Shown here piece after piece: positions 5,065 to 24,819 of a stretch of DNA of 64,000 nucleotides. Under the pieces are notes generated by a model that was given only the letters and a program-made list of their open reading frames with translations, was not told the DNA's origin and made no database searches. The number at the start of each line of letters is the position of its first letter. The first letter of the stretch is position 1. The DNA is from an uncultured Fibrobacterota bacterium (GTDB lineage: Bacteria; Fibrobacterota; Chitinivibrionia; Chitinivibrionales; FEN-1185): contig CAVWBU010000027.1 of assembly GCA_963753345.1 (NCBI GenBank), forward strand, positions 287,624 through 351,623, in the 5' to 3' direction. The position numbers were made by a program, and so were the translations under genes.

Positions 5065-6687
5065 ATGTATTTTGAAATGACCAGGCAACCAAGCACCTTC
5101 CACATCAGACAAATCATGCATGATGAAGCTTCGCACAACAATCGATTGAAAGCCGTTGTCGCAGTACCGCCTGTCAAGGATTTCTACTTTACCAGGCACC
5201 GGTTCTCTTCCCTTGGCGCGAGAACTGTTTTCAAGATCCTCAAGGCCAGCGGCGTTGATGCCGCCTTTCTTGATTTCCCCTCAATGAAGAAGAATGGCCA
5301 ACAGATTGATATTCCTGATGAAATTGCGTACCTCAACCGGTGTATCATTCCGGGCGAAACCGGAAAACTGTCGTATTTTACGAAATATCAGCTATTTGGG
5401 CCTTCAGTTGAGGAATGCGCAGAAATAATTTGCAGTCATCACCCGGCGCTTTGTTTTCTGAGCTGCTTCGCCTTTTCGTACGGCAAGGAACTTATTGATC
5501 TTGCCGGAAATATCAAGAAAGTCAATCCTGATATCGTGGTTGTTGCAGGAGGCGCCGGAGTCACGGCCTATCCGCACTATTTTCTGAGAGACGCAAACAT
5601 TGATTTTGTGCTTTGTGGTGAAGCCGAGGTCAACCTGCACATCTTTCTGGAAGCGGCGGTAGCCAAGACAGTGACTTTCGATCAGGTGCCGAACTTAATG
5701 TGGAAAAAGGACGGGATGGTGCGACAATCCCGTGCCAAAAGCTCCTCCAATTCCACGATGATCGAACCGCTGATCGCCAAAGTGTGGGAAACCAACAAAT
5801 CAGTTTACTTTTCGACGTGTTTGAGCCGGGGATGTCCAAACGAATGCAAGTTTTGCTCCAATTGGATAGTGCATGGGAGGAGTTTTCGAACCGTTGCAAT
5901 CGACAAATTTATCAATGAATTGTGTGGTATTTCAATCGATGAGAACGATGACAGAAGAATTTATGTCAATTTTGAGGACGACAACCTGCTTTTAGCGCCG
6001 GACTACCTTATCGAAGTGATGGCACAGGTCAAAAAGCGGTTGCCGAAGGCGTCATTCCTTGCCGAAAACGGCCTCGACTTCCGGCTGCTCACGCCTGCCT
6101 TGGCCGACGAGCTTGTTTTACTGGGAATGACCTCATTTAACTTCACTCTTTGTTCCGTAAACAAAAACCTTCTGGAACAACAAGGCCGCAGAACTTCCCT
6201 TTCGCATTACGAATCAATCGTCAGGCACGTAGCCGCACAGCATGTTCCAATTCTCTCCTATTTTATTGCAGGACTTGAAGATGATTCAAAGCTTCATTCG
6301 GTGGATACGCTGGCATTCCTTTTTGGCCTGCCGACAACTGTTGGAATTTCAATGTTTTATGCTGTTGCAGGCATATATGGGTTCGAAAATCCAGAGCGGT
6401 TTGATAAAATTGCCCCCTGTATTTGCAATGGTTCGTCAGCATTTCCATGGAATGGCTCACTGTCGACAGAAGAGCTGATAACATCTTTCAGATTAAGCAG
6501 ATACGTCAACCTGCTGAAGTCGGTCAATAAGTCACCAATAGAAACAAAATTGCTGAAAAAAGTCACGGCTGAGCAGAAGCTCTTCACACTTGTCAACAAT
6601 GAGGAAGGTATTTCAATTGTCGAAGTGCCGGAATATCACCGCGGCATGGTGAGAATGTTTTTGCAGAAAGTCAAGCCGGAGGACTGA
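5065..6687 (+). CDS. B12-binding-domain radical SAM protein (class B rSAM), paralogue 1
   Basis: 540 aa. The N-terminal Rossmann-like part (DIVVVAGGAGVT) is followed by the CxxxCxxC cluster motif CPNECKFC. The start is uncertain (alternative ATGs at 5077 and 5116). Confidence 0.85.
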   Translation: MYFEMTRQPSTFHIRQIMHDEASHNNRLKAVVAVPPVKDFYFTRHRFSSLGARTVFKILKASGVDAAFLDFPSMKKNGQQIDIPDEIAYLNRCIIPGETGKLSYFTKYQLFGPSVEECAEIICSHHPALCFLSCFAFSYGKELIDLAGNIKKVNPDIVVVAGGAGVTAYPHYFLRDANIDFVLCGEAEVNLHIFLEAAVAKTVTFDQVPNLMWKKDGMVRQSRAKSSSNSTMIEPLIAKVWETNKSVYFSTCLSRGCPNECKFCSNWIVHGRSFRTVAIDKFINELCGISIDENDDRRIYVNFEDDNLLLAPDYLIEVMAQVKKRLPKASFLAENGLDFRLLTPALADELVLLGMTSFNFTLCSVNKNLLEQQGRRTSLSHYESIVRHVAAQHVPILSYFIAGLEDDSKLHSVDTLAFLFGLPTTVGISMFYAVAGIYGFENPERFDKIAPCICNGSSAFPWNGSLSTEELITSFRLSRYVNLLKSVNKSPIETKLLKKVTAEQKLFTLVNNEEGISIVEVPEYHRGMVRMFLQKVKPED

Positions 6688-10200: not shown

Positions 10201-12436
10201 GAAGCCATGAGGGATGTGTTCATGAAATACCGGGTGGCAATGTCAAACGCGACTTTTTCCGTTGCATAACGCGCGGCTTCGTAGCAGATCTCTATGGCCT
10301 TAACGAGGTTTTTGCTCTTGAGGTAATATTCCGCAGCGTTGAATATGAATTCCTTGTCCGAGGCCATTTTTTCTTCATACACACGCGCTATCTTTTCATT
10401 GAGCGCAAATGCATCATCCCGGGACACACGCAGGGCAATGGATTCCTGGACCTTGTCATGTCTGAAGTAAAAGGCATTTTCGGATTTTCTGATGATGAAT
10501 CCGAGGTTTTCGAGCCTGCGCAGTATGCGAGTTACTTCCTCCTTTTCAAAGCCCCCCACTTTCTCCACAATGCCTGATTCGACTTTTCCCTGAACAAGCG
10601 ACGCAAGCATAAGATAACGTTTTTCATTTTCGTTTAATATTTCCAGCCTGGAAAGAACAAGAGAGACAGGGTCGAATTTTTCCGGCAATGATTTAATGTC
10701 TGACTTATTGTACATCCATCCTGTCGGGGAGGGTTTGAGTATTGAGGTGTTCACCAGGTATTGCACTGCTTCGGAAACGGTAAATGGATTGCCGTCTGTC
10801 TTGGCTGGACAGCGCATCATCAAGGACTTCAGCGTCCTGAATTTCCCCTATACGGGACGAAACAAGCTCTTTGATTTCCGCCCTTGAAAACGGCCTGATG
10901 TTGAGAAGCTTTCTTATTCCGATTTTCCTGAGGTCAGTGCCGTACGCAAAAATATCAGCATCCGATTTTTCGGTCCGAAAGGAAATCACGAGCATGCAAA
11001 CAGGCTGCAAAGCGAGGAATCTCTTGAGCACTTCAAAGGAGATCTGGTCTACCCATTGGAAATCGTCTACGAACACAATTGATTGCCGGAAAAGGCTGAT
11101 TGCGGAGAACAGCATGGACAGTACATGGATGATACGTTCAGCTTCTTTTTCCTTTTCTACTTTGTCTATCTCCCCCACTTTTTCAAAATGCCCATGCAAG
11201 TTCCGGGATTATCGAGCAAATAACGCCTGAATAATCGCTAAGGTTTTTCTGAAGGATTTCCTTGAACAGGACTTTTCCCTCTTGATCGACAAAGCGCGAT
11301 TTTTGACAGAAGTTGAAGCACAATGTTGCGGACAACGGAATATGGCTGGCTCGAGCTGAACCTATTGCATTTCGAAGAAAGAAACATTGTTCTATCTTCG
11401 TTTACCTTGGTCCTGAACCGGTCAACGATTTCGGTTTTGCCCATGCCGGATCTTGCCAAAGATCAGAAACGAGGAACCTTTCCCAAACTCCAATTGTTGG
11501 AGCCCATGACAAAGAGCTTCAATTTCCGTGTCCCGGCCGACAAATACTTTTGATCGGCCCGCCGCTATTATGGCGTCCCTTTCGCCTGGAATAAAGGGTT
11601 TGCCTTCTTCCCTGATGCAGAGGATCGCCTGTTCTATGTCGTGCTTGAATCCGCTCGCAGTCTGATACCGGTCGTCAGGGGAAGGTCGCAAGGATTTAAG
11701 AAGAATAGTGTTAAGGTACGCAGGAATGTTCTTAACAGGCTTTACCTCAGTCTTAAGCGTAAATTTGAGAAGTTCTTCAAGGGAATCCTTGTGATCGGGA
11801 AACGGCAGGCTGCCGGAGATCATCCTGTACAGAATGAGTCCAACGCAGAAAAGGTCGGACCGTGAATCTATTTTGAAATCGGTAAACCCCATCTGCTCGG
11901 GCGAAAGATACGGCATGGTTCCCACTATCCTGCCCTCAGGGAGCTTTCGCGCCTCTTCCTCGAGCATGGAAAGACCGAAATCAAGAAGCTCAAGTCCCCG
12001 CTCTTCATTGATGTAAATGTTGTGCGGGTTCAGGTCGCAATGGATTATGCCGCGCGCATGTATATATTCGAGCGCGTCCAGGACCTGGCTGAACATACAA
12101 AAGAGCTTCTTCCGCAGACAGCGCTTTTCTGTTCTCGCAGATTTTTGCAAGGGTCGTTCCGTCACGGTATGGATACAGAATCGAATAGGTGGTATCGTCG
12201 GCAAATGTCTCCGCAGGCCTGGCAATGTTCGGATGGTCGAGCGAAGATACAGTGTCAACTTCTTTCCTGAACCGTATTTTCCTTTGTAAAGCCTCACCGG
12301 AAGCGACTTTTTGCTCGTTGAGCGATTTGAGAAGAAAATGTTCCCCTGTTTCCTTTTTTCGGGTGAGAAATACATCGCTGTCCCGGCTGGAGGAAACAAG
12401 ATTGAGTATGTCGAATTTCTGCTGGAGCGTTTCCAT
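7280..12436 (-). pseudogene. Ser/Thr-kinase - AAA/P-loop ATPase - TPR - GAF - histidine-kinase mega-sensor, fragmented into at least 8 frames
   Basis: Collinear fragments: kinase N-lobe (12005-12436); C-lobe with HCDLNPHN/DFG/SPE (11422-12399); P-loop G-K|SGMGKT split at about 11450; ATPase/TPR pieces (9840-11199); unassignable debris at 9250-9840; then GAF, H-box HDIKN (7665-8756) and HATPase N/G boxes (7280-7954). Frame switches at about 12100, 11450, 11200-11280, 10810, several in 9250-9840, about 8740, and 7871-7874. Confidence 0.8.
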
Positions 12437-12614
12437 AGTTACTTAACGGAATTGATTGGAGGGAACTTCAGACAAAGATTGGCTAACAAGTGTATGATAA
12501 ATTCTATAATTGAAAAGGCTTTTCGGTCAAGGAGAAAAAGGGGTATCTTGAGCCCGTAGGATCTGGTCCTTTGAAAACTCCCCAAGGTATTCGATTATAA
12601 ATCATCTTGTTCCG

Positions 12615-14390
12615 TTACACCTTCTCTTTAAGAGTTTTTGCAAAGGCCTTCATCAGATATGGGTTGGATTTGATGCCCTTGGTTTGGCCCATTTCCTTTA
12701 TTGTTTGCAGCATTCGCGGCTTTGCAGGAAGATGCTGCTCGTAATCATAATAGACCACTATTATTGAAGATTCATTATTCTTGTTGTGTGCTGTCGATTC
12801 ATTTATGCTTTTTTCAAGGTCTGATGTCGAACGTACTTCGTAGAAATTAACACCAAATGCCAGCGCCAGATACCTATAATCAGGGTTTTGAATTTTTGTA
12901 CAAAATTCCAGTTCCCCGCCGTAGGACAAACATTGATTAATCTGGACCATGTTGTAATAATCGTCTTTGAAAATCATCCACGTAATACCCAGTTTGTATT
13001 GCACTGCTGTCAACACCTCATTACCGTGCATCAAAAAAGAGCCGTCGCCGCAAAGACAAAGAACGAATCTATCTGGAGAAGCGCATTTGCCACCGATGCA
13101 TCCGGCAACACTTTGCCCCATTGAGTATCCTGCCGCGGATGTAAAATATCCATTTTGCCGGGCTTTTAGGTGCCGGACTGAAGAAAAGGAGGATGCGCCG
13201 GTATCTGCAAAAACTATTGAATCATCAGGAAGCAATCTTGAAATTTCAGCGTAAATGTATTCTAATTTTAGTGGTACTGTTTTCTCTGCCATCTGGTTAT
13301 TTTGAGAAATATTGGCTGAAATAACATTATCAGCAATTGCTTTTGCAGATCTTGTTGGCGAATATGCAGTTTGTTTTAATTGAGCACCTAACGAGTTTAA
13401 TGTGGCCGGGATGTCTCCTGCAACTGCCAATTCAACAGGAAAGTTCATTGAAAAACGTAAGGTATCTGAATCAATAGACAAAATCTTCGTATTCTTGAAA
13501 AGATCAGGATCATATGCAAGCGTTTCGGCCTCGGAAAAGTCCATTCCTATCGCTAAAACCATATCGCTCTGTCGAATAAGCTTTTCAGCCGACCGGTGAC
13601 CATAATAGTCAATAACTCCCCCGAACAATTCCTGGAACTCGTTGAGAATTCCTTTTGAACCATGGGTTACAATGAACGGAGATTGAATTATATCAACAAT
13701 GGCTTGAAGTTCACCGCTGCAATTAGGATACACGCACCTATTTCCGATACAAATCAGTGGGTTCTTTGCTTCTCTTAACAATGCTATTATGTGCCCTATT
13801 TTGCCATTTTCAACCCGGCAGTCATTTGCAATGCGATATTGATCGGGTTTCATATCCTCATATTCGATTTCCACGCTGAAAAAATCGCTTGGAATCCCTA
13901 AATGCACAGGCCCATAAGGAACTGAAAGTGAATTCCGGAACAATTCTCTCAAATAATCTGGTATTCTATCAGGACTGTACGCTAAAATGGATCTCCTTGT
14001 AATGCAATCAAACAGACGGTTTATCGAATATGAAACTCCGTATCCTGAATCTTCCTGATACGCATTTTTTCCAAAAAGATTTGAAGACACGACTGGAGTT
14101 ATTGCAATCCCCGGAATCGCAGCCTTGAACATCTCTGCAATTCCACTCGCCAGATTTACAGCTCCGGGACCTGCCGTTCCTAAGACAAGGGCTGGTTTTT
14201 GGGAAACTTTGGTATAATCAAGTGCCATGAATCCGGCAGCGCCTTCGTGCTTTACGGATATGAATTTTATTTTTGAATCTTTAAGCGAGCTGAAGAATGA
14301 GAGGTAATGGGAGCCTGAGATACCGAAGGCATGTTCTATGCCTTCGAGTTCCAAACATCTTACAATTGCCTGCGCGACAGTTATTTTCAT
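12615..14390 (-). CDS. thiamine-diphosphate enzyme of the acetolactate-synthase/benzoylformate-decarboxylase family
   Basis: The N-terminal PYR domain has HEGAAGFMA and GPGAVNL. The C-terminal ThDP motif is GDGSFLMHGNE. The ATG at 14388-14390 (MKITVAQAIV…) fits family N-termini better than 14444. Confidence 0.88.
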   Translation of the reverse strand: MKITVAQAIVRCLELEGIEHAFGISGSHYLSFFSSLKDSKIKFISVKHEGAAGFMALDYTKVSQKPALVLGTAGPGAVNLASGIAEMFKAAIPGIAITPVVSSNLFGKNAYQEDSGYGVSYSINRLFDCITRRSILAYSPDRIPDYLRELFRNSLSVPYGPVHLGIPSDFFSVEIEYEDMKPDQYRIANDCRVENGKIGHIIALLREAKNPLICIGNRCVYPNCSGELQAIVDIIQSPFIVTHGSKGILNEFQELFGGVIDYYGHRSAEKLIRQSDMVLAIGMDFSEAETLAYDPDLFKNTKILSIDSDTLRFSMNFPVELAVAGDIPATLNSLGAQLKQTAYSPTRSAKAIADNVISANISQNNQMAEKTVPLKLEYIYAEISRLLPDDSIVFADTGASSFSSVRHLKARQNGYFTSAAGYSMGQSVAGCIGGKCASPDRFVLCLCGDGSFLMHGNEVLTAVQYKLGITWMIFKDDYYNMVQINQCLSYGGELEFCTKIQNPDYRYLALAFGVNFYEVRSTSDLEKSINESTAHNKNNESSIIVVYYDYEQHLPAKPRMLQTIKEMGQTKGIKSNPYLMKAFAKTLKEKV

Positions 14391-14550
14391 TGTGTGCTTT
14401 GCCTTATCAGCGTTGCATTCGATGCTCAAGTTCAGTTCAATCACAAAATCAAAAAATAGTTATTGGTTTTCAACAAAAGTGAAAAAGAAGGATGCTTCGT
14501 TTTTAAAACTGTGTCTATCGTAAGAATGTGCCAAATTCGGAACAAATAAT

Positions 14551-15858
14551 ATGACAAAGGCGCTTGCTCTCATCTCACCCAGGGGCAGCTTTAGCAGCAG
14601 CAATCCGGAATTTAAGAAATTCTGGAACGGCTCGCCCTATACCTCAACTTACCGTCAGGACTGGTCCGGCCTCGGAACCGGTTTGTTAATAGTAGCTGCA
14701 TTGACTCCATCCGAATATGATGTCAAAATTATCGACGAAAATATTGAATCCGTAGACTTTTCTAAAAAATTTGACCTTGTCGGCATTACCGCAATGACAC
14801 AGCAGGCACGTCGGGCATACCAGATTGCAGATGAATTCAGGAAAAGGGGTATGTTGGTAGTTATTGGGGGAATACATGCTACGATTTTGCCGGAGGAAGC
14901 AAAACTGCATTGTGACAGCGTCGTAATCGGCGAATCTGAAAATACCTGGCCAATGTTGCTAAAAGATCTAAAAGCAAAGGCTCTGTTACCCTTTTACAAA
15001 GCGGACAATATTGTAAGCCTTATAAATTCACCCTTACCAAGATATGACCTGCTAAAGAATAAGAAGTATTCGATTGTTTGGCTTCAGACCACCCGTGGAT
15101 GTCCGCACGATTGCGATTTTTGCGCTGCATCAAAGATTTTTGGGGCAAAATACAGGTTCAAAGACATTTATCAGTTAAGACTGGAAATAGAACTAATCCG
15201 AAAAGAACTTGGAAATGTCTTGATCGGTATCGCAGATGACAATATAGCGGTAAATAAGAATCATCTTTCCTTACTATTAGATTACCTCAAGACATCTGGC
15301 ATCAGATGGCTGGGCCAATCAGACATTTCAATTGCCCAGGATAGTGGAATGTTAAACATCGTTCAAAAAAGTAATTGCAAACTTCTGTTGTTAGGACTCG
15401 AAAGTATATCGGCAGAGAACTTAAGGCTTGTCAACAACAACTCCTGGAAGTACAATAAACTTTCAAGTTATTCTTCATATATTGGAAAAATTCAGGAAGC
15501 GGGCATCGGCGTCCTAGGCTCTTTTATTTTCGGCTTTGATTATGACGATGTTACTGTTTTTAAGCAAACTGCGGATTTCGTTTTGCAAAACAACCTTTAT
15601 TATGGTAACTTTAGCATTCTTACCCCATATCCGGGAACAAGATCAAGGGACAGATTAGTAAGAGAAAACAGATTGCTTCCCACTTCCTGGGAGAATTATA
15701 CGCTATGGGATTTAAATTTCATTCCAAAAAGAATGAGCACTTCGGAATTACAAGCAGGATTGTTTGATACTTATAAAATGATTAACACAAGAGAAGCCTT
15801 CGAAAAAAGAGCAATCTTTTTTAAAAATATTTTTAAAAGTCAAATGAGGAAATCTTGA
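14551..15858 (+). CDS. B12-binding-domain radical SAM protein (class B rSAM), paralogue 2
   Basis: 435 aa, frame intact. B12-domain segment DLVGITAMTQQ…VVIGGIHAT, then TTRGCPHDCDFC (CxxxCxxC). Confidence 0.9.
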   Translation: MTKALALISPRGSFSSSNPEFKKFWNGSPYTSTYRQDWSGLGTGLLIVAALTPSEYDVKIIDENIESVDFSKKFDLVGITAMTQQARRAYQIADEFRKRGMLVVIGGIHATILPEEAKLHCDSVVIGESENTWPMLLKDLKAKALLPFYKADNIVSLINSPLPRYDLLKNKKYSIVWLQTTRGCPHDCDFCAASKIFGAKYRFKDIYQLRLEIELIRKELGNVLIGIADDNIAVNKNHLSLLLDYLKTSGIRWLGQSDISIAQDSGMLNIVQKSNCKLLLLGLESISAENLRLVNNNSWKYNKLSSYSSYIGKIQEAGIGVLGSFIFGFDYDDVTVFKQTADFVLQNNLYYGNFSILTPYPGTRSRDRLVRENRLLPTSWENYTLWDLNFIPKRMSTSELQAGLFDTYKMINTREAFEKRAIFFKNIFKSQMRKS

Positions 15859-15882
15859 GAAGAGAATGGTATTTACAAGTAT

Positions 15883-17247
15883 TCAATTTTCTGCGGCAAC
15901 TTGTATTTCGAAATATTCTTCGCACACCAGTCTTGATACTCTTTTTTTGTTTTCTCTGTTTTTGTCTATAAGCTCAACATGTGCACGGATAACATTGTAT
16001 AGCAATTCATCTGATTTGCATTCAACGGTTACTTTGAGCACATTCTCATGCATCTTCATCAACCGTTCCACTTCTGCAGGATAAACTTTATTTCCTCCGA
16101 CATTGAACATTCGTTTTTTACACTCAATGAAATAGACATATCCTTCATCATCCATTTTGCCAATATCCCCGGAATGCAACCAACCATTTTTTATTGTCAA
16201 TTGTGTGGCTTCCGGATTATTATAGTACCCTTTCATCACATTTGCGCCTTTAATGCATATTTCTCCGACTTGCCCTGCCGGAAGGATTGATCATCCGAAT
16301 CGAGGATAGCCACTTCGCAACAGGGCAAAGCACGACCTACCGACCCTTGCTTTACTTTATCTCCGGGACAATGCCACGTACAAATCGGAGATGCTTCGGT
16401 AAGGCCATATCCCTACTTGAATTTCCACATTGAAATCCTTTTTTAAAATAATAGAATACTTTCGGCCAGTCTACTTCCCCCGCTCGATAGAATTTTTACG
16501 CGTGGGAAACTATGGATTTTAAATGTGGCAATTTCTTTAGAAAATAGTATACAAGCGGAATGCTGCATAAATATAGCGTCACTTTATATCGTTCAAGTTC
16601 AGCATTGCTATCTTTCGTATTGTTGAAAAGTTCGCAATATCCTCAATCAAAATATTTCCGCCGACTATAGAAGGAATAATAACGCCTGTCTGCAATGCAA
16701 ACAAATGATGGAATGGGATTATCGAACATGAGAACGGTGTTATCAGATACTTTGGGTTGCATATTATCCCAGCCTCTGCATTCGCCCTCAAACTCTCATT
16801 CGTCAGCATCGCGCCCTTTGCATACCCATCCGCTGCATTGGTGTACAGAATCAGGCACACATCCTCCAGCCCTTCCAACTTCCTTTCCTCCAGCCTGCAA
16901 TCCCTGAATTCAAATTCCTTTTCAAAATCAAACGTGTCCGTGCTTTTATCAATGCGTATGAGTGCGCCCGGCACAGTGTCGGCCATCATTTCGGCAAGTT
17001 CCAGCTTGCCGATGGCCGGATCCACCAGCACGCAGATCTTTCCGGACTTAATAATGCCGAACAGGGCATATACCATCTTGATGTGGTTGGGAGCAAAAAG
17101 ATAGACAAACGGCGAGTTGGAAACGGTCCGCTTATTAAGGCATTCCGCCACAGCGTCAATGTTCTGCCGGATTACATCGGGCGGGTAGGTCTTGTCCCTG
17201 AAGTAGATATTACCAAGATTTAAACTATCGGTGAGAAGCGGCATCAA
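15883..17247 (-). pseudogene. acyl-AMP/acyl-ACP ligase (ANL adenylate-forming family), at least 5 frame breaks
   Basis: The N-terminal fragment 16579-17247 and C-terminal fragment 15883-16239 (KGYYNNPEAT…WLHSGDIG…GGNKVYPAEVE) are in ORFs. My hand translation of 16240-16580 recovers …VKILSSGGSRLAE / KYSIILKKDFNVEIQVG / YGLTEASPICTW…SVGRALP / LPAGQVGEICIKG in alternating frames. Confidence 0.8.
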
Positions 17248-17304
17248 TAAATATTCTGTTTTAAGAATGAGTTCGCATCAATCGAAGTGCTGCTCAAGCA
17301 AAGG

Positions 17305-17574
17305 CTACTTTGAAACAGCCCCTTCTCTTGCCATTTCACCCTCAAGTACGGTCAAGAATTCGTTTAAAGACTCCGCTTCCATGGCTGAAATCGGAATTTC
17401 GATATTCAGTTCGTTCTCAAGTTTTGCCAACACAGCGACAAACTGCATTGAATCAAGGTTCACCTGCTCCCGCAGGTTCTTTGTCGCGTCAATAGTGGCT
17501 GGGTCGATATTGACGACGCTCTGGATAAGGCTGTAAATTTTCTTTCTTGTTGCTTCGTTCAAGTCATCCCCCAC
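17305..17574 (-). CDS. stand-alone acyl carrier protein
   Basis: 89 aa with a GTG start. Phosphopantetheine-attachment context QVNLDSMQFVAVLAKLE (DSx motif). Acidic, four-helix-sized. Confidence 0.8.
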   Translation of the reverse strand: MGDDLNEATRKKIYSLIQSVVNIDPATIDATKNLREQVNLDSMQFVAVLAKLENELNIEIPISAMEAESLNEFLTVLEGEMAREGAVSK

Positions 17575-17746
17575 TTCCGATTAAACCGATCATTTTTGCA
17601 TTGACAATCAATTTTGATCAAGGCGCTTGTCATTGATCATAGAGCACTCCACGTTCAACATCTTGCCCATATTTACCGATTTACGATGAGCTGTAACTTC
17701 TTTTGATTTATTAAGTTCCAGAAATGACATTTCGTATTGGTTTAAG

Positions 17747-18823
17747 TCAGTCATCTGAATATACATGCCTCCCTGCAGAAAGCGATATTCCCAGGTTTGG
17801 AACGCTGTCCAGCTTCTTAAGGAACAAATCCATTTTTTCTCGTGTGATATTTCCCCTGCCCCACGAACACGGCAGAGAATCGTCGAGTGCAAGCAATATT
17901 CCTTCAACCTGGCAGCCGTAAAAAGTGTCCGGCGAAGCAAGCCCGATGTCGAATCCGGCATCAAGCGCAAACGGCAAAGACACGATGCCGCCGTGGTAGA
18001 CAAAGACGTCCTTACGCAGGGGGTCTGTTACCGTCACATTCTGCGGAGCTGAAGCATCGCACACGATGGTGCCGGGCCTAAAATCATCCTGCGAGTACAT
18101 GGGAACGTAGGCGCTTGTCACAAAAATAACGATGTCGGATTGCTGGACCGCCATGTTGTTATCGGTGGATATTTCAATGTTGCTTGTCAACATATCTTTC
18201 CGGCTTTCCTGCAGCGTTTCGAGAGGGCCGATGCTGCGCGCCGTGAGGATCATTCTCTTTACCTTGTTGCCGAAATAGGAAACGCATCCGCTGCCGATAT
18301 CTCCGGAGGCGCCAACTATGCCGATGGTCGCCCTGCTCAAATCAACCCCGAGTTCTGCCGTTGTCTTCTCGATAGAACGGACGATAACGGCCGCGGTCAA
18401 CGTGTTGCCTGAGGTAAGCTTCATTTCATGCTTTTGCGCAAAGTCCTGTTCCCTACCCTGCAGAACGATCGAGGTGAATGCGCCGAGCGCGGCGACCGTG
18501 CATCCGGATTGTGAAGCGATTGAAAGCGCCTGATCGATCTTTTCCACCACCTTTTTAAGCCGTATATCCCTCATGTCCGGCAAAAACGGGACCATGATCA
18601 GGTGCGCATCGAAATAGTTCTTTTTGTCAAAGGTGAGGTTATGCCAATCAATCACTTTATAGGAAGGCGTCCATTCGAACAGCTTGATAAGGAGCTCATC
18701 GCGGTATGTTTTATCCGGACGCAAGTGTTTTATATAGGCCCTGAACAGGGGCATGTCTGCGGGATGCCCGATAAAAGCGACTTTTGCGGTAGGGCCGTGA
18801 TGTAGGTGGGTTGCATTCGTCAT
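17747..18823 (-). CDS. acyl-ACP reductase (cyanobacterial AAR)-like NAD(P)-dependent reductase
   Basis: By-eye collinearity with Synechococcus AAR as I recall it: ALGAFTSIV/ALGGFTSII, TSGNTLTA/TTGNTHTA, IGIVGASGDIGSG/VAVVGATGDIGSA, LTAR, YGCQVEGILLAL/FACFAEAMLLEF (catalytic Cys position), WGRGNITREKM/WGRNQITIEKM. Start at ATG 18823; the ORF is open to 18898. Confidence 0.7.
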   Translation of the reverse strand: MTNATHLHHGPTAKVAFIGHPADMPLFRAYIKHLRPDKTYRDELLIKLFEWTPSYKVIDWHNLTFDKKNYFDAHLIMVPFLPDMRDIRLKKVVEKIDQALSIASQSGCTVAALGAFTSIVLQGREQDFAQKHEMKLTSGNTLTAAVIVRSIEKTTAELGVDLSRATIGIVGASGDIGSGCVSYFGNKVKRMILTARSIGPLETLQESRKDMLTSNIEISTDNNMAVQQSDIVIFVTSAYVPMYSQDDFRPGTIVCDASAPQNVTVTDPLRKDVFVYHGGIVSLPFALDAGFDIGLASPDTFYGCQVEGILLALDDSLPCSWGRGNITREKMDLFLKKLDSVPNLGISLSAGRHVYSDD

Positions 18824-18860
18824 GGGCTGGTCGCGTCCGGTGCCTGAAGCGGTCAGACAG

Positions 18861-19874
18861 TCACAGTGTTTCGAGAATGGAAGCATAGTCCGCTTCACCG
18901 ATCGTGCGGTTGAACTGGATCCGGACGGTCCCGGAACCGGTATCGTGATGAATTTCCCGCGCGGAAAGGGAAATGCCGCCTATTTCAAACGGGTCGTCGT
19001 GCCACTCAAAGGTGCCATCGTATTTGAAAAGCATGCCTCGTGGAGAAATATTAATCAGAAAAACCGGAAGAACGCGCTCGCCGAATATGAGCGACGTATG
19101 CTTTTCGACAAGCTGGCGTTCGTGGGCCCTGTCCGAAGTCGCGGTGAGGGTCTGCACCATTTTTCCCATGTTTGGTTCGCTGAGCGCTTCCTTGAAGATC
19201 AGCCTGCAGTTCTTATGCTTGAGGTCGTTGAACAGCGGCTCCGCATCAAAGGCGATCTCTCCTATTTTAACGGCAACCTGGGCCGCGTCGAAAAGACCGT
19301 CGTAGTAGAACATCATGCCCTTTTGGGAGACATTGACCACATAAGCGCGGATGTCTTTGCCGTTCAGCTTGATGTTGCTGTATTTGCCGATATTATGGCG
19401 GGGGTATTTCCGGTCGTCAACCTGCGACCTGGTCAATTCCTCCTTGATTGCATGGATCATGGAGTCGATGTTGGTCTTCATTTTCTCCTTGAGAATATGA
19501 CCGAGCACCTCCTCGATAACCGGAATGCCGAGATTATAATCGATGGTAAAGTAGATCTTGATGCCTTCGTTCTGAAAGTCCTCAACCTTCCACGTTCCGT
19601 TGATGTTCTCAAAATCGCCGTCTATCGATTCAAACCGCAGCTCGTAGTTGGCAACGTCGTAATAGTCGCGTTCCACCCAGCGCAGCGGCGCCTCTTCAAC
19701 CGTGACGAACCACTCCGATTTTCCGTCGGTCGGGGTTTTCTCAATGACGTTCACCTTGTCGACGTTCTCCATGATGGCTTCGTACCGGGAGTAGTCGGAG
19801 ATGATGGTCCAGGCGAATTCCTTACGCACCTTTCCCTTGAGCACCGCTTCGGTTGAGACTCGTTCGTAGGCCAT
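18861..19874 (-). CDS. SRPBCC (START/cyclase-dehydrase-like) domain fused to two PilZ domains
   Basis: 337 aa. The first ~140 aa have an SRPBCC-like pattern. Two PilZ signatures follow: RKYPR…NVSQKG and RAHER…NISPRG (RxxxR + D/NxSxxG). Confidence 0.8.
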   Translation of the reverse strand: MAYERVSTEAVLKGKVRKEFAWTIISDYSRYEAIMENVDKVNVIEKTPTDGKSEWFVTVEEAPLRWVERDYYDVANYELRFESIDGDFENINGTWKVEDFQNEGIKIYFTIDYNLGIPVIEEVLGHILKEKMKTNIDSMIHAIKEELTRSQVDDRKYPRHNIGKYSNIKLNGKDIRAYVVNVSQKGMMFYYDGLFDAAQVAVKIGEIAFDAEPLFNDLKHKNCRLIFKEALSEPNMGKMVQTLTATSDRAHERQLVEKHTSLIFGERVLPVFLINISPRGMLFKYDGTFEWHDDPFEIGGISLSAREIHHDTGSGTVRIQFNRTIGEADYASILETL

Positions 19875-20133
19875 GACTCAATTGCCCTGCTGGTTATTGT
19901 AGCGCATAAACTGAACCCGCGACAGATTTACTGTTCCGTGAAGAATGTGCATCGGCACCTGATATGATGTCTTCTCCAAGTGATGAAAGTGAGGAGAGAT
20001 TCTGCACGTCAAAGACGCTCATGACGCCAAACACGTTCTCGCTTTTTTTCTCGTCTGCGGCAGCATCCAGGCACTGGTGTGACTACGTTCACCTGGATTC
20101 GGCGTAACAAAGACATATCAAAGATAGAATTTG

Positions 20134-20149
20134 TTGCGCTAAAGCGCAA
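20134..20149 (-). terminator. possible terminator hairpin downstream of the bio operon
   Basis: Palindrome TTGCGCT-AA-AGCGCAA lies 56 nt after the bioG stop. On the minus strand it is followed by caaattctatcttt (T-rich). Short stem, weak call. Confidence 0.3.
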
Positions 20150-20204
20150 GCGCCGTGTTGAGCGTCCCGAGAATTCCCATTTTGCAACTTGCCGTGCGAC
20201 CACC

Positions 20205-20912
20205 CTATGATTCCGCTTTGCAGCCGATGAGCCGCCCTACATCCGGTTCTGCGGGCCCGGCAAAGAACGCGTGCCCGCCCGGCACCGAAACAAATCTGGA
20301 GCCCAAATCATCAGCCAGCGCTTTTCCCGCGGCCACGGGGACAATTGCATCCTCACTGCCGTTAAGAACCATGGAGGCACACCGCAATTTTGCCAGTACC
20401 GGAAGCAGGTTTGCCTGTTCGAGAAACAACAGGCCGGCAGCAAGCGAATTCACGCCGTACCGTGCGGATTGTAAAACATCAGGCGAAAGGCCGGCGGTCA
20501 GCAGAAAATCGCGCAGGACCGTATTCCCGGGTGTCGGAAGCCGTTGTCGCATGGCGGCCAGCACACTTGTCTTCCAGCCGGACCTGAACCCTTCACACCT
20601 GCAGAACGACGGCGTGGCGGACAGAAGAACCAGTTTGTGCGGTTCGCATCGTAGCGCAAGCGCGCCGGCGATTATCGCGCCGGTGGACCATCCGGCAACA
20701 GCGTTCGCCGTTGCAAGTTCATTTTCAAATGTTCGTTCGACTTTCGATACCCAATGGGACAGGAGCGTTTCACCGTCAAAAAGAGACGGCATCAACGGAT
20801 TCACATCCACGTATATGGCGCTGGCGCCGAACAGGGGCTGCAAAAGTTTTGGGCCAATGCCCCACCCTCCGAAAACAAGCCACCTGTCAACCATGGAGTT
20901 TTTTCCATTCAC
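20205..20912 (-). CDS. bioG: pimeloyl-ACP methyl ester esterase, BioG/DUF452-like alpha/beta hydrolase
   Basis: N-terminal LVFGGWG and nucleophile elbow AGWSTG. It is the last gene of the bio operon. The start (20912 or 20894) overlaps the bioF 3' end. Confidence 0.6.
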   Translation of the reverse strand: MNGKNSMVDRWLVFGGWGIGPKLLQPLFGASAIYVDVNPLMPSLFDGETLLSHWVSKVERTFENELATANAVAGWSTGAIIAGALALRCEPHKLVLLSATPSFCRCEGFRSGWKTSVLAAMRQRLPTPGNTVLRDFLLTAGLSPDVLQSARYGVNSLAAGLLFLEQANLLPVLAKLRCASMVLNGSEDAIVPVAAGKALADDLGSRFVSVPGGHAFFAGPAEPDVGRLIGCKAES

Positions 20913-22033
20913 CGAGTGTGTCGATCACAAATGCTATATCTGCGTCCGACAGCCCGGAATGCACCGAGAACCGGACGCGTGCCTTGCCCTGCGGGACCGT
21001 GGGCGGCCGGATGGCCGGCGCCTTAATGCCGCGCGTACGAAGAAAAGCTGAGAGCTCGACGGCTTGTTTATCGCTTCCCGCAAGGCACGGCACGATCTGC
21101 GTCGAGGAATTAAGCGTGTCGAAGCCGCAATCGCGGATTCCCTCTCGCAGAATACGCGCTTTTGTCAATAGTGCCGGGCCGAGCCCGGGGTGTTTGCGGC
21201 AGATGACGCACCGCGGCAAGGTCATGCGCCAGCACCGACTGCGGCAGCCCCGTGGAATAGACAAGGCTGCGCGCCAGGTTGACAAAACAGTCTCTGAAGA
21301 ACGAATTGCCCGCAAAGAAACCGCCCAATCCGGCAACGGCCTTGCTGAGCGTTCCCATCACAACGTCGATCCCGCTCTCCACGCCGCATTCCTCCACCAA
21401 CCCGGCAAGCGTTTTCCCGAACACGCCCGTTGCGTGAGCCTCGTCGACCATCACCATGCAGCCGAACTGCTTTGCAAGCCCGCAGATGTCGGCAAGCGGC
21501 GCCGTGTCGCCGTCCATGCTGAACACGGAATCGGTGACAATGAGCCGTTCCTTCTTTGTGGAGACCGCAAGTCTGTCCCTTAGATCCGTCATGTCGCAAT
21601 GGCAATACCGCACGAGCGCCGCGCCCGACAGGCGCACGCCGTCGAGGATCGAGGCGTGATTGAGCCGGTCGCAGAAGACCTCGGTGTCACGCCCGCACAG
21701 GGCCTGAATGATGCCCAGGTTCGCGCATACCCGGAATTAAACACCAGCGCCGCCTCGGTTTTTTTCCACTGGGCAAGCTCCAGTTCGAGTGCGTCGTAAA
21801 GCGGCGAACGGGTTTCGATGAGACGCGAGGCGAGATTTCCCGAAAAGCAAGAATCCGCCAGACGTTCTGCCTCCGACCTGACCTCGGGATCGGTATGCAG
21901 CGAACAATAGCTGTTGGTCGGCGAGATCGAGGCGCGCGCCGCAAGGCGACGGGCCCATTGTCCTGAACAGGTCGAGGCTTTTTCTGCTGTCAAGTTCCGC
22001 GTCCAGGCGGTCGTATATAGGCGAGTCATTCAT
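20887..22033 (-). pseudogene. bioF: 8-amino-7-oxononanoate synthase, three frame breaks
   Basis: Fragments in ORFs 21737-22249 (MNDSPIYDRL…), 21589-22029 (…NSYCSLHTDPEV…ALVFNSGY), 21110-21637 (…DSVFSMDGD…VDEAHATG…GTLSKA) and 20887-21336 (…IRPPTVPQGKARVRFS). Switches at about 21920, 21722 and 21205. The ATG at 22033 overlaps the bioA stop by 8 nt. Confidence 0.85.
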
Positions 22034-23366
22034 GGAGAATGTCTCTAACTGCTTTGGTGGTGACCGCAAACATGGTACTGATCTGTTCTTCGGTGATAAT
22101 ATACGGCGGGACAAAATACAGCACGTTTCCCAGGGGACGGATGAGAACGCCGTTTTCCAGCGCTTTTTGCGCGATACGGAATGGCACGCGTTTTTCCGGA
22201 AGAAAAGGCGATTTGGTTTTCCTGTCCGCCACAAGTTCGATTGCGCCAATCATGCCGATGGACTTCACGTCCCCGACCTCATCAATGCCGCGCAAGGCTT
22301 CAAGCCCTTTTCTGAAAAACTCCATCTTCGTTTCGAGCGACCCAGGGATATTCTCTTCTCGCATTATGGCAAGTGTTTCGCAGGCCGCTGCGGCAGCAAG
22401 CGGGTTCCCGGTAAAGGAGTGACCGTGAGCCAGTTCCTTTCCCGCAAGGTGATTGCCGCAGAATGCCGCATAGACCTCCTCGCGCGCAACGGTCGCCGCC
22501 ATGGGCAAACAGCCGCCCGTGAGCCCTTTTGCAAGGCACATGATGTCGGGCGTTACGCCGGCATGCTCGCACGCGAAAAGTTTTCCGGTGCGGCCGAAAC
22601 CGGTCGCCACCTCATCGGCAATGGTGAGCACGCCATGGACTTTACAGGCTGCAAAAAGGCGCTTGAGCACCTTGGCCGGATACACGCGCATGCCTGCCGC
22701 GCCCTGAACCATGGGCTCAAAAATGCACGCAGCAATCGTGTCGCCCTTTTCGTCAAGGATGCGTTCAAGCGATTTCATGCATTCGGCGCCGCAGGTCTCT
22801 TTTTCCATGCCGCAAGGGCAGCGGTAGCAGTATGGTGCGTCCGCGTACCACTGCGACTTGAACGCTTTGTGAAAGAGCGAGTGATACGCGGGAATGTTTC
22901 CAACCGACATTGCCCCGAGCGTGTCACCATGGTAGCCGCCGGAGAGCGAAACAAAGGCGGTGCGCGGTTCTCCCCTTGCCGCCCGGTATTGCAGCGCAAT
23001 TTTGAGCGCCACCTCAACCGCTGTGGAACCGTCGTCGGAATAAAAGATGCGCGCAAGTTCCTTCGGCAGCAGCGCCGCAAGCCTGTGCGAAAGTTCGAGC
23101 GCAGGCTCCGAAATAAACCCTGCCATAAGGACGTGTTCAAGTTTGTCCGCTTGATTCTTGACAGCCCTGATTATCCGCGGATGGCAATGCCCCAGAACCG
23201 ACACCCACCATGATCCTATTGCGTCAAGGTAGCGCCTTCCGTTTTTATCGAAAAGGTAAACACCCTCGCCGCGGGTAATCACGGCCGGCGGATAGTCGCG
23301 GACGTCATCCGAACACGTGAAGGGAAACCAGAGACGGTTGAAGGGGTCAGCGGAGGAGTTCATCAC
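22026..23366 (-). CDS. bioA: adenosylmethionine-8-amino-7-oxononanoate aminotransferase
   Basis: 446 aa, intact. Class-III aminotransferase pattern (SWWVSVLGH…, DEVATGFGRTG) in a bio-operon context. Confidence 0.92.
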   Translation of the reverse strand: MMNSSADPFNRLWFPFTCSDDVRDYPPAVITRGEGVYLFDKNGRRYLDAIGSWWVSVLGHCHPRIIRAVKNQADKLEHVLMAGFISEPALELSHRLAALLPKELARIFYSDDGSTAVEVALKIALQYRAARGEPRTAFVSLSGGYHGDTLGAMSVGNIPAYHSLFHKAFKSQWYADAPYCYRCPCGMEKETCGAECMKSLERILDEKGDTIAACIFEPMVQGAAGMRVYPAKVLKRLFAACKVHGVLTIADEVATGFGRTGKLFACEHAGVTPDIMCLAKGLTGGCLPMAATVAREEVYAAFCGNHLAGKELAHGHSFTGNPLAAAAACETLAIMREENIPGSLETKMEFFRKGLEALRGIDEVGDVKSIGMIGAIELVADRKTKSPFLPEKRVPFRIAQKALENGVLIRPLGNVLYFVPPYIITEEQISTMFAVTTKAVRDILHE

Positions 23367-24048
23367 AAAACTCCTTGGTCTTCTTCAAACAGCGGCATCC
23401 ATACGGCACCACGAGAAACGGCACGTTTCGTGCGTAATTGCGAAGCGTTCTGACGTTGTCGCGGTAGATAAAATCATCTCGGACATTATTACGGTTATTG
23501 ATAACCAGGCCCGCCAGCGAAAGGCCGGCGGCCTCAATCGCGCACATGGTGAGAAACGTATGGTTGAGCGTGCCCAGTTCGGGAGTGGTGACGAGAACGA
23601 CGGGCAGCTTGAGCAGCTCCATGAGATTGACAGTGAGCACCGATGGACCAAGCGGAACCATCACTCCCCCTGCGCCCTCAGCGAATACGCATCCGCCGCG
23701 CATACCGGGAAGGCTTCGTATCATGTCAAGACTTCGTTTGATTTTCCGGATTGAAACTTGCGCGTGCGCGCGCTGTGCAGCCAGATGCGGTGAACACGCG
23801 GGAACAAACCGGTACGGAACGTGAATGTGATCCGCGCCAAGGACCAGACCGCCCGACTTTCTGACATATTCAAAGTCCGGAGCGCTAAGCATGCCGTCTT
23901 TCAATTGCCTGCATCCGGTTTGCACCGGTTTCATGTACGAAACCGGAACAAATGCGGCCATCGCCTCAACGAGCAGCCGGCTCACAAATGTTTTTCCGAC
24001 GTCGGTGCCGGTGCCGGTGACAAAAAATCCGATTGACTTAGCCTTCAT
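23347..24048 (-). CDS. bioD: dethiobiotin synthetase
   Basis: 233 aa. N-terminal P-loop FFVTGTGTDVGKT. Overlaps the bioA start by 20 nt. Confidence 0.9.
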   Translation of the reverse strand: MKAKSIGFFVTGTGTDVGKTFVSRLLVEAMAAFVPVSYMKPVQTGCRQLKDGMLSAPDFEYVRKSGGLVLGADHIHVPYRFVPACSPHLAAQRAHAQVSIRKIKRSLDMIRSLPGMRGGCVFAEGAGGVMVPLGPSVLTVNLMELLKLPVVLVTTPELGTLNHTFLTMCAIEAAGLSLAGLVINNRNNVRDDFIYRDNVRTLRNYARNVPFLVVPYGCRCLKKTKEFCDELLR

Positions 24049-24054
24049 ACGAAA

Positions 24055-24819
24055 TCATTTCTTGATTGCAAGTCCATAGGCGACATTGATGGAGAGCGGA
24101 ACCCCGGAAGGCTCGTTATGCCTTTCTCCATATTCCCTGCACAGTCTTATTATTTCCTGCAGAGAAAGGCGCTTCCCCTCGACCGCGGTGCTGCCCGTCT
24201 CGCTCATGTACTTGAGCGCATCCATGGCAGAGGCAAAGCGGTACTGCTTTGCAAAGGATAAATACGTCCGGCAGTCGAATCCCGATGCGGCCAACAGCGC
24301 CGAAAAATCGTCGCGCGAAGGAAGACGTACCGGAACGGAAAGATTGCGCTCCTGGCGCAGGGAAAATATTTCGGCAAAAGAACCTTGCAGAAATGCGGCG
24401 AATACCAGCGCGCCGCCGGCAGCCAGAATGCGGTGCAATTCCCCCATGCCTTTGGATGGATCCGCCAGCCAGTGTAACACCGAGGCGACCACTGCGCCGC
24501 CGAACACCCCGCTTTTGAACGGCAACCCCTCAATGTCGGACTGAACCGCGCCGGAGCTTCTGCGGCAACGCAGCATTCCGTATGCCAGATCGGTGCGCAT
24601 CAATCTGACAGGAACCTTGTGATCGATAAGCAACCCTGCCATGCCGCCTGCGCCGCAGCCGGCGTCAAGCCAAGGCAGGCTTAGCCAGCCCGCGGTCTTT
24701 ACAAGAGGAACAAGCATTGCAAGGATCTGTTTCTGGATATACGCTTCCTCCTGGTATCCGTTTGCTTTTGCGGAAAATGTCGCGGCAATGCAGCGTTTGG
24801 ACGGAATTTGTACAATCAT
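24055..24819 (-). CDS. bioC: malonyl-ACP O-methyltransferase (class I SAM-MTase)
   Basis: 254 aa. SAM motif I LDAGCGAGG. First gene of the bioC-D-A-F-G array. Confidence 0.8.
   Translation of the reverse strand: MIVQIPSKRCIAATFSAKANGYQEEAYIQKQILAMLVPLVKTAGWLSLPWLDAGCGAGGMAGLLIDHKVPVRLMRTDLAYGMLRCRRSSGAVQSDIEGLPFKSGVFGGAVVASVLHWLADPSKGMGELHRILAAGGALVFAAFLQGSFAEIFSLRQERNLSVPVRLPSRDDFSALLAASGFDCRTYLSFAKQYRFASAMDALKYMSETGSTAVEGKRLSLQEIIRLCREYGERHNEPSGVPLSINVAYGLAIKK

Follow-up and report, generated by a model that had tools for sequence, protein, structure and literature searches.

A polyketide-cyclase/START-type domain fused to two PilZ domains in uncultured Fibrobacterota, a candidate effector of c-di-GMP and lipid

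Introduction

PilZ domains are the most widespread receptors of cyclic di-GMP (c-di-GMP). Their output depends on the domain to which they are fused or on the protein with which they act; the known examples are motility, secretion of polysaccharides, transcription, and a small number of kinases and methyltransferases. In this work, we analysed a stretch of 64,000 nucleotides, hereafter the window, from an uncultured bacterium of the Chitinivibrionales (contig CAVWBU010000027.1 of assembly GCA_963753345.1), an order of the poorly studied phylum Fibrobacterota. Our subject is the gene at 18861–19874, whose product joins an N-terminal SRPBCC domain to two PilZ domains. It is a real and apparently uncharacterised three-domain protein, and we lean towards reading it as a cytoplasmic effector with c-di-GMP binding predicted from its motifs.

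The tandem PilZ arrangement has precedents. Passages of a PilZ survey describe tandem canonical PilZ–PilZ proteins in alphaproteobacteria (10.1101/814665). The Bradyrhizobium proteins Bll4394 and Blr5568 and Sinorhizobium SMc00999 share with our protein two PilZ domains derived from tandem duplication; in the passages that describe them they are PilZ-only proteins of a different phylum, with no SRPBCC or other N-terminal ligand-binding domain, and we saw no sequence relationship to them beyond the domain family. Because tandem canonical PilZ domains are already known, the novelty of the protein lies in the SRPBCC fusion and its genomic context alone.

The best structural matches to the PilZ pair (residues 148–337) are YcgR, PlzD/VCA0042, MotI/DgrA, MrkH and PlzA, with which our protein shares an RxxxR motif placed in an interdomain linker; in the predicted model, this placement suggests a c-di-GMP-driven domain-closure switch. 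Only the C-terminal domain of such xPilZ–PilZ effectors binds c-di-GMP, whereas our protein carries motifs in both PilZ domains and has an unrelated third domain. Their outputs are the flagellar motor, DNA or fimbriae, not lipid, and the domain orientation differs or is unpredicted (root mean square deviation (RMSD) 8–15 Å).

Two further groups resemble the protein in how c-di-GMP is used. HapZ and MapZ of Pseudomonas aeruginosa are soluble PilZ proteins that relay c-di-GMP to a signalling enzyme (SagS and CheR1, respectively), and the action of HapZ with the histidine kinase SagS provides a precedent for a kinase output (PMC12564702). The family of our protein adjoins a gene for a receiver (REC) histidine kinase in about 20 of 22 species, which recalls HapZ–SagS through a putative interaction; unlike our protein, however, HapZ and MapZ have no second ligand-binding domain, and in the window the kinase gene is not adjacent. 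In BcsA and Alg44, c-di-GMP on PilZ switches on a product made by neighbouring gene products, but there the PilZ domain is joined to, or adjoins, the catalytic subunit of a polysaccharide synthase in the membrane, whereas ours has a soluble lipid-binding fold and would presumably deal with a small lipid.

On the side of the N-terminal domain, TTHA0849, Coq10 and RatA/PasT share the helix-grip fold with a hydrophobic cavity and the Polyketide_cyc family, but are single-domain proteins of about 150 residues, unlike the three-domain protein described here. Full-text literature searches for PilZ together with SRPBCC, START or polyketide cyclase returned no relevant paper, and the passages searched in two PilZ surveys (10.1101/814665 and 10.1101/2020.02.11.943704) name no polyketide-cyclase, lipid-binding, SRPBCC or START partner. 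An earlier reading of this DNA from its letters alone, hereafter the original prediction, had supposed the architecture to be uncharacterised, which agrees with these searches and with relatives being named only as SRPBCC family or RatA proteins.

Domain architecture

The interval 18861–19874 coincides exactly with one open reading frame (ORF) on the minus strand, with an ATG start, 337 codons and a stop at 18861–18863. The original prediction had thus delimited the gene correctly; its strand is corrected here to minus. A plus-strand ORF at 18822–19856 (344 residues) is a shadow ORF, without a Pfam match and unsupported. The first methionine is nearly invariant among relatives, with which the protein aligns end to end, and no indel separates the gene from its counterpart on a 97%-identical short-read contig (L026). 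An exact-sequence look-up found no record of the window protein. Its features are as follows.

18861–19874, minus strand: whole SRPBCC–PilZ–PilZ gene (ORF and translation; 337 residues plus stop codon)
19428–19874, minus strand: SRPBCC (helix-grip) domain, residues 1–149, ending in the long C-terminal helix 118–149 (PF03364, AlphaFold2, Foldseek)
19140–19427, minus strand: PilZ-1, residues 150–245, six-strand barrel and C-terminal helix 233–245 (PF07238, AlphaFold2, Foldseek)
19398–19412, minus strand: RxxxR motif 1 (RKYPR, residues 155–159), six residues past the SRPBCC C-terminal helix
19317–19334, minus strand: [D/N]hSxxG motif 1 (NVSQKG, residues 181–186; motif match and alignment of relatives)
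18864–19139, minus strand: PilZ-2, residues 246–337, barrel and C-terminal helix 327–336 (internal duplicate, AlphaFold2, Foldseek)
19116–19130, minus strand: RxxxR motif 2 (RAHER, residues 249–253), in the linker after the PilZ-1 helix, with R249 four residues past that helix
19035–19052, minus strand: [D/N]hSxxG motif 2 (NISPRG, residues 275–280; motif match)

The original prediction had proposed a polyketide-cyclase/START-type domain in the N-terminal ~140 residues, and both profiles and structure bear it out. On the whole protein, Pfam calls Polyketide_cyc (PF03364) at residues 19–139 (E 9.1e-16; 58.7 bits against a cutoff of 23.4) and Polyketide_cyc2 (31 bits, cutoff 27.4), and the AlphaFold2 model has a seven-strand sheet followed by helix 118–149. 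A Foldseek search of the PDB with the full model ranks the START-like TTHA0849 first (2d4r; E 6e-12, TM(target) 0.93, RMSD 1.7 Å, 23% identity), with aromatase/cyclase (ARO/CYC) and Bet v 1 proteins below it, and TTHA0849 is the sole match of a PDB sequence search with the whole protein. The domain is also the most conserved of the three, with a mean identity of 67% among the long relatives, against 41% for PilZ-1 and 36% for PilZ-2. W55, W66 and W95 are invariant and F81 and F88 conserved in the alignment of relatives, a pattern compatible with a predicted hydrophobic pocket. A signature, EW..APL.W.E.D / GDF..G.W / Y.LGIPVIEE, is common to this domain and to stand-alone SRPBCC proteins of the gene cassettes described below; it sets apart a distinct subfamily, linked to those cassettes, from TTHA0849, Coq10 and RatA.

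Polyketide ARO/CYC enzymes dominate Foldseek ranks 3–14, a near-invariant Gly-Asp pair occupies positions 86–87 within the fold, and the operon includes an acyl carrier protein (ACP); together these would fit a catalytic domain, a cyclase, dehydratase or aromatase acting like TcmN or ZhuI ARO/CYC on an ACP-bound intermediate under c-di-GMP regulation. The closest structure, however, is the non-enzymatic START-like TTHA0849, the ARO/CYC structures listed are only 10–16% identical, and neither the window cluster nor the related loci examined contain a ketosynthase/chain-length-factor gene. Given the missing ketosynthase/chain-length-factor gene in those loci and TTHA0849 as the nearest structure, we judge a polyketide ARO/CYC role very unlikely. 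The label ‘ribosome-associated toxin RatA’, which the Joint Genome Institute (JGI) attaches to many relatives, fares worse still. A toxin of this type would agree with that label and with a weak match to NCBIfam NF007999, but the match reaches 27.8 bits against a cutoff of 258, there is no antitoxin-like partner, and the conserved neighbours are lipid-metabolic and signalling genes; score and context effectively refute it.

Both PilZ signatures recognized in the original prediction, RKYPR/NVSQKG and RAHER/NISPRG, are intact where it had placed them and conserved in the family. Across six-frame ORFs of at least 80 residues in the window, the pattern RxxxR...[DN]xSxxG has just two matches, both in this protein. 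R155, R159, S183 and G186 of PilZ-1 are invariant in all 63 aligned relatives, even though the mean identity of the domain falls from 41% in the long relatives to 25% in the short ones; position 181 is N in 53 of these sequences and D in 10, and the hydrophobic position of the same motif is I, V, L, A or F in the 40 relatives that carry both motif sets. The four corresponding residues of PilZ-2 are invariant in the 23 aligned two-motif members (mean column identity 32%). From the first arginine to the glycine, the span is fixed at 32 residues in about 119 family members and is equal in both copies of our protein. The two C-terminal segments are 26% identical over 90 ungapped residues (BLASTP, E 3e-16), and an origin of the two barrels by internal duplication is strongly supported by this comparison.

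As for profile models, Pfam calls the SRPBCC domain and the first PilZ domain, whereas the second PilZ domain stays under threshold. PF07238 yields a single call when the whole protein is scanned (27.5 bits, cutoff 22.5), at residues 154–198, which correspond to the N-terminal, motif-bearing half of the model (profile positions 2–47 of 102). PilZ-1 scanned alone scores 19.0 bits, under the same cutoff, and matches model positions 2–48 of 102.

The structure prediction that the original prediction had called for yields three well-folded domains in the full-length AlphaFold2 model, with a mean predicted local distance difference test (pLDDT) of 87.9. In PilZ-1, six strands span residues 160–227 and are followed by helix 233–245, with block-mean pLDDT of 63–94; in PilZ-2, strands run over 254–321 and are followed by helix 327–336, with block means of 84–96 from residue 251 and 73 for residues 241–250. 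Modelled alone, residues 148–337 reach a pLDDT of 88.1, and Foldseek matches this model to Borrelia PlzA with c-di-GMP (7mie; E 1.4e-7). Further matches take in both barrels over 200–230 columns, namely MotI/DgrA (5vx6), VCA0042/PlzD (1yln/2rde), PP4397, YcgR (5y6f) and MrkH (5kgo), and the single-PilZ matches are Alg44 (4rt0), MapZ (5xly, 5y4r) and BcsA (4p00/5ej1). Taken together, the duplication, the motifs conserved across the family and the predicted fold support the second PilZ domain as real. The individual folds are likewise supported by the models; the arrangement of the domains relative to one another is left uncertain by a predicted template modelling score (pTM) of 0.51, and the clamp proposed below therefore comes without a confident prediction.

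The residue before RxxxR influences whether a PilZ domain binds c-di-GMP as monomer or dimer (Leu in VCA0042, Arg in PP4397). An Asp precedes the motif in both copies of our protein, which would favour monomer binding.

Could one or both PilZ domains have given up the nucleotide and serve instead as a protein–protein tether for an SRPBCC carrier or enzyme, in the manner of those PilZ and xPilZ domains that do not bind it? The match to the Pfam model covers its N-terminal half only, the PilZ-2 motifs have disappeared from a subclade of about eight long proteins, and known tandem PilZ proteins usually have one non-canonical domain according to the passages searched in one survey (10.1101/2020.02.11.943704). 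Yet the motif residues are retained in 63 of 63 sequences at 25% domain identity in PilZ-1, and in 23 of 23 at 32% in PilZ-2, and such selective retention would be hard to explain without nucleotide binding. We consider a non-binding role unlikely.

Family and distribution

A search of 5.8 billion clustered proteins gave 86 homologues at E ≤ 1e-3, the best of them 99% identical, and full-length relatives range from 85% down to about 40% identity. An exhaustive HMMER scan over 1.84 billion representatives found 518 clusters at E ≤ 1e-3, of which 35 reach E ≤ 1e-30; at the weak end are ordinary SRPBCC proteins of about 150 residues. The 228 proteins that we collected comprise 40 with two intact motif sets, 8 long ones without PilZ-2 motifs, 71 with a single PilZ domain (about 250–280 residues) and about 100 with SRPBCC only. 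The PilZ-bearing relatives, about 120 with either one or two PilZ domains, come essentially all from uncultured Fibrobacterota.

To these we added a species scan, covering one genome per GTDB species with a single peptide pattern, in which all loci are from metagenome-assembled genomes (MAGs) or single-cell genomes. It gave 23 loci, 20 of them labelled Fibrobacterota, Chitinivibrionales, Chitinispirillaceae, Fibrobacteria or a related name. Of the other three, one lies on a short contig binned as ‘Bacteroidetes’; the remaining two, on contigs of Syntrophobacter and of Desulfobacteraceae, match the SRPBCC part only. Relatives carry the source name ‘SRPBCC family protein’ (HUI90645.1, 339 residues and 77% identical; MBN2037234.1, a single-PilZ form).

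This distribution, rather than a phylogeny, suggests a series from SRPBCC alone through SRPBCC–PilZ to SRPBCC–PilZ–PilZ, with PilZ-2 decaying in one subclade. It offers a testable evolutionary sequence of forms with no, one, two, or a degenerate second PilZ copy. Since all members come from uncultured MAGs, experimental work will necessarily be heterologous.

On the contig in the ‘Bacteroidetes’ bin (L018), the SRPBCC–PilZ gene at 1521–2639 is frameshifted, and a remnant of about 50 residues of the reductase gene described below lies before the ACP gene; this may be a copy in decay, or else the contig is mis-binned and carries errors.

Genomic context

In the window, the gene is followed by the neighbours listed here.

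17747–18823, minus strand: downstream gene 1, acyl-ACP-reductase (AAR)-like thioester reductase (TIGR04058, PigE N-terminal domain), starting 37 nucleotides past the stop of the SRPBCC–PilZ–PilZ gene
17305–17574, minus strand: downstream gene 2, ACP (DSM phosphopantetheine site; PP-binding Pfam match on orthologues)
15883–17247, minus strand: downstream gene 3, AMP-binding fatty-acid ligase, frame-broken (PF00501; tblastn against the intact L001 orthologue)
14551–15858, plus strand: convergent B12-binding radical S-adenosylmethionine (radical-SAM) gene (Pfam; 79% identity to the orthologue of L001; found in some relatives only)
12615–14390, minus strand: thiamine diphosphate (ThDP) acetolactate-synthase-like enzyme (TPP_enzyme_N, _M and _C; position conserved in relatives)
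7280–12436, minus strand: giant Ser/Thr-kinase/AAA_16/TPR/GAF/histidine-kinase, frame-broken (tblastn; about 1700 residues in relatives)

For the giant kinase, GAF and HATPase_c are called on the C-terminal fragments, and the full domain list comes from intact orthologues.

Relatives usually keep the order REC-histidine kinase, SRPBCC–PilZ protein, AAR-like reductase, ACP, acyl-AMP ligase, sometimes a B12 radical-SAM gene, ThDP enzyme and giant kinase. The succession of our gene, the AAR-like reductase, ACP and ligase holds in over 15 species of Fibrobacterota; the part from our gene to the giant kinase is seen on the contigs of P0003, P0039 and P0079, by tblastn in L004–L016 and L022, and also in L001 and L002. 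The AAR-like gene adjoins the SRPBCC–PilZ gene in about 17 of the 22 species loci. A gene encoding a REC-HisKA-HATPase protein ends 2–270 nucleotides before the SRPBCC–PilZ start, often 2–20, in about 20 of the 22 informative species loci. The statement in the original prediction that ours is the first gene of an acyl-ACP cluster is true of this genome, although in most relatives the histidine kinase gene precedes it. That kinase, the most conserved neighbour in relatives, had been overlooked, and its conservation shifts the likely output towards two-component signalling.

The chemistry of the cassette can be sketched from its homologies. The AAR-like window protein matches TIGR04058 with 118 bits, far below the cutoff of 449.7, and also matches the PigE N-terminal domain. 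Its L001 orthologue aligns over its full length with cyanobacterial AAR (6jzq/6jzu; E 1.5e-23) and also with the PigE N-terminal domain (4ppm); the AAR alignment includes the nucleotide-binding GxxGxxG region and a Cys in an ‘fACfaE’ segment. This Cys sits at what we take to be the catalytic position of AAR. On these alignments, the protein is an AAR homologue with probably related chemistry. In the biosynthesis of 2-methyl-3-n-amyl-pyrrole (MAP) for prodigiosin, the N-terminal AAR-like domain of PigE reportedly serves as a thioester reductase at a step that follows the ThDP enzyme PigD (PMC8341465), and the same source thus supplies a parallel for an AAR-like reductase paired with a ThDP enzyme.

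By analogy with these pathways, the ligase would charge the ACP with a fatty acid, the AAR-like enzyme would release the acyl chain reductively as an aldehyde, and the ThDP enzyme would probably carboligate the aldehyde with a unit derived from a 2-oxoacid, so that the cassette probably makes a fatty-aldehyde-derived lipid under kinase control. The likeness to the cyanobacterial pathway of AAR and aldehyde-deformylating oxygenase (ADO) and to PigD/PigE lies in the full-length AAR homologue downstream of our gene. Against them, the window cassette has no ADO and no aminotransferase domain, and scores far below the TIGR04058 and PigE cutoffs; it has a dedicated ligase and ACP to supply the substrate, and neither of those pathways has an SRPBCC–PilZ component.

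The cassette also occurs without PilZ. Two SRPBCC proteins lacking PilZ domains, P0098 (L027; 54% identical to our N-terminal domain) and P0114 (L028; 42%), are encoded directly before AAR-like genes. In L027 the order is SRPBCC, AAR-like reductase, ACP, ligase and GMC oxidoreductase, with no kinase nearby. The contigs of P0104 and P0114 are about 1 kb long, and only L028, that of P0114, is informative, in that the gene after SRPBCC matches the AAR-like protein. Such PilZ-less cassettes lie at 8001–12550 in L027 and 155–1071 in L028, both metagenome contigs of undefined taxon, and at 4–2589 in L025, from a Desulfobacteraceae MAG. Because these PilZ-less subfamily members precede AAR-like genes with no nearby kinase, the SRPBCC domain belongs to the cassette. 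The literature search returned no matching paper for the cassette, and no NCBIfam model reaches its cutoff on any cassette gene. Our survey draws attention to this uncharacterised set of biosynthetic genes (SRPBCC, AAR-like reductase, ACP and ligase), which also exists apart from PilZ, including on a Desulfobacteraceae MAG contig.

The PilZ-bearing form behaves differently. Its most divergent single-PilZ members (25–38% identity; L019–L021 and L024) keep the REC-histidine kinase gene and lack the cassette within 10 kb; downstream of them lie FliD/FliS, or a glycosyltransferase with MacAB-TolC. The kinase thus stays even where the cassette is missing, which ties the PilZ-bearing form to it.

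These observations bear directly on a purely metabolic reading, in which SRPBCC would be an obligatory accessory or carrier subunit of the AAR-like reductase that takes over the insoluble aldehyde, PilZ would act as an allosteric on-switch, and the kinases would regulate transcription separately. Its analogues are ADO accepting aldehyde from AAR and the PilZ domains of BcsA and Alg44, and the lipid would be made only at high c-di-GMP. The stand-alone SRPBCC proteins of the same subfamily in kinase-free AAR-like/ACP/ligase cassettes (L027, L028) fit this well, as do the tight 37-nucleotide junction with the AAR-like gene, the greater conservation of SRPBCC (67% against 41% and 36%) and the presence of the PilZ-gated enzymes Alg44 (4rt0) and BcsA (4p00/5ej1) among the structural matches. 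The distant single-PilZ clade, which retains the REC-histidine kinase with no cassette within 10 kb, points the other way, as does L017, where the cassette lies 7 kb off beyond the giant kinase. We regard this metabolic gate as possible, though rather unlikely.

Flagellar genes accompany some family members. In a Fibrobacter sp. MAG (L024, 8737–11146), the gene for the single-PilZ form is followed by FliD and FliS, and FlhB-FlhA-FlhF-FlhG-FliA with an HDOD protein precede the two-PilZ form P0039, so that a motility link is possible for some members.

Proposed mechanism

The reading that we put forward, with a slight lean in its favour on sequence evidence and analogy, is that of a dual-input effector of lipid and c-di-GMP, which would gate a lipid hand-off or signal to a kinase. 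In it, the SRPBCC pocket would hold the hydrophobic, reactive intermediate or product of the cassette, and the PilZ domains would bind c-di-GMP, as their motifs predict. In helix-grip pockets the C-terminal helix is the lid. Each RxxxR of the AlphaFold2 model sits in a linker just after a helix, the first after the C-terminal helix of SRPBCC and the second after that of PilZ-1, and because each motif follows its helix directly, we propose that c-di-GMP would clamp each linker onto its own barrel, as in PlzD and YcgR, compacting the three domains. Compaction could then change access to the pocket or uncover a site at which the AAR-like enzyme or the REC-histidine kinase would dock. The output would be a c-di-GMP-dependent hand-off or retention of lipid, or a signal to the upstream REC-HisKA-HATPase kinase, and the protein would integrate ‘lipid present’ with ‘c-di-GMP high’.

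Several observations weigh against this reading. PilZ-2 scanned alone reaches 13.9 bits (E 0.07), below the PF07238 cutoff of 22.5, and a profile of 23 PilZ-2 copies searched against the PDB finds as its best match the PilZ protein PA4608/MapZ at a marginal E of 0.08. The geometry on which the clamp depends has a pTM of 0.51–0.60 (0.51 for the full model), with RMSDs of 8–15 Å to tandem PilZ structures. No neighbouring gene reaches a curated NCBIfam cutoff, nor do the intact orthologues of the ligase, ThDP enzyme, radical-SAM protein and REC-histidine kinase. The associations with the cassette and with the kinase imply two different outputs that are inseparable here. In the window, moreover, the slot upstream of the gene holds no adjacent REC-histidine kinase but a bio operon (bioC, bioD, bioA, bioF and a bioH-like gene) and a 330-nucleotide gap, and the ligase and giant-kinase genes are frame-broken. 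No GGDEF motif is found in the 64-kb window, where EAL- and GYP-type pattern matches are short, scattered and at chance level.

Genes for c-di-GMP turnover do lie near some related loci: L001, L004 and L017 have an HD-GYP-type HD_5 gene together with a REC gene, and P0079 has a GGDEF gene nearby.

If the dual-input reading holds, an SRPBCC–PilZ tandem in a lipid-aldehyde cluster would add lipid metabolism or sensing to the outputs of PilZ, and would be a rare case in which a single polypeptide could read two small molecules. A more ambitious reading, which we regard as doubtful, takes the whole locus to be a self-contained, Fibrobacterota-specific lipid-signal circuit, in which the cassette would make an acyloin (of alpha-hydroxyketone type) or a related signal derived from a fatty aldehyde. 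Our protein would be its carrier or receptor inside the cell, would release or report the lipid only at a certain level of c-di-GMP, and would inform the REC-histidine kinase and the giant kinase. Were it true, the circuit would give PilZ effectors their first case of a second small-molecule input, and would link c-di-GMP directly to the production or sensing of a lipid autoinducer.

The locus in this genome

The bio operon occupies 19875–24819 of the window on the minus strand, in place of the REC-HisKA-HATPase gene seen in about 20 related species, including the 85%-identical L004 (8888–9982). It likewise lies upstream in L026. The slot is a recent rearrangement that has uncoupled our gene from its most conserved neighbour.

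Rfam searches, at gathering thresholds across the whole window and at E ≤ 1 in 19700–20400, found no c-di-GMP riboswitch or other RNA. A sigma-70 scan of 17200–20400 found no minus-strand promoter-like site in the 330-bp upstream gap, with a consensus that may not fit this phylum, and the same scan found no convincing terminator after the bioH-like gene. For want of such a terminator, transcripts of the bio operon may read through into the SRPBCC–PilZ–PilZ gene.

Several genes around the SRPBCC–PilZ–PilZ gene are frame-broken. By tblastn against L001, the ligase is in pieces in two frames with internal stops, and the giant kinase is spread over at least four pieces in several frames; the pieces are still 48–80% identical to the intact L001 orthologues, and both genes fall in a region of the cluster that is poor in GC. 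The bioF-like gene (8-amino-7-oxononanoate synthase; 20887–22029, minus strand) occupies three frames in the window and is an intact 381 residues in L026, from which the window differs by nine indels, five of them within bioF. Since similarity within the pieces stays high and bioF is intact in this 97%-identical contig, assembly indel errors appear a simpler explanation than pseudogenization. If the breaks were real and not sequencing error, the pathway would be defective in this strain.

The GC content of the ligase, radical-SAM, ThDP and giant-kinase genes (window 8000–18000) is 0.40–0.46, against 0.55–0.60 in flanks such as the bio operon, and a similar dip is seen at 12600–21000 of both L001 (radical-SAM gene, 0.35) and L004; it may reflect composition bias or a foreign origin of the distal half-cluster. 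The ThDP enzyme of the window is 43% identical to that of L001 (15357–17129), whereas neighbouring genes are 59–80% identical, and the ThDP enzymes of L004 (16670–18439) and L001 are 86% identical to each other, which suggests two ThDP paralogue types swapped among close relatives. Past the giant kinase lie another B12-binding radical-SAM gene (5065–6687, plus strand), an ABC-2 transporter fusion (1663–3411, minus strand) and a stand-alone Ser/Thr protein kinase (530–1633, minus strand).

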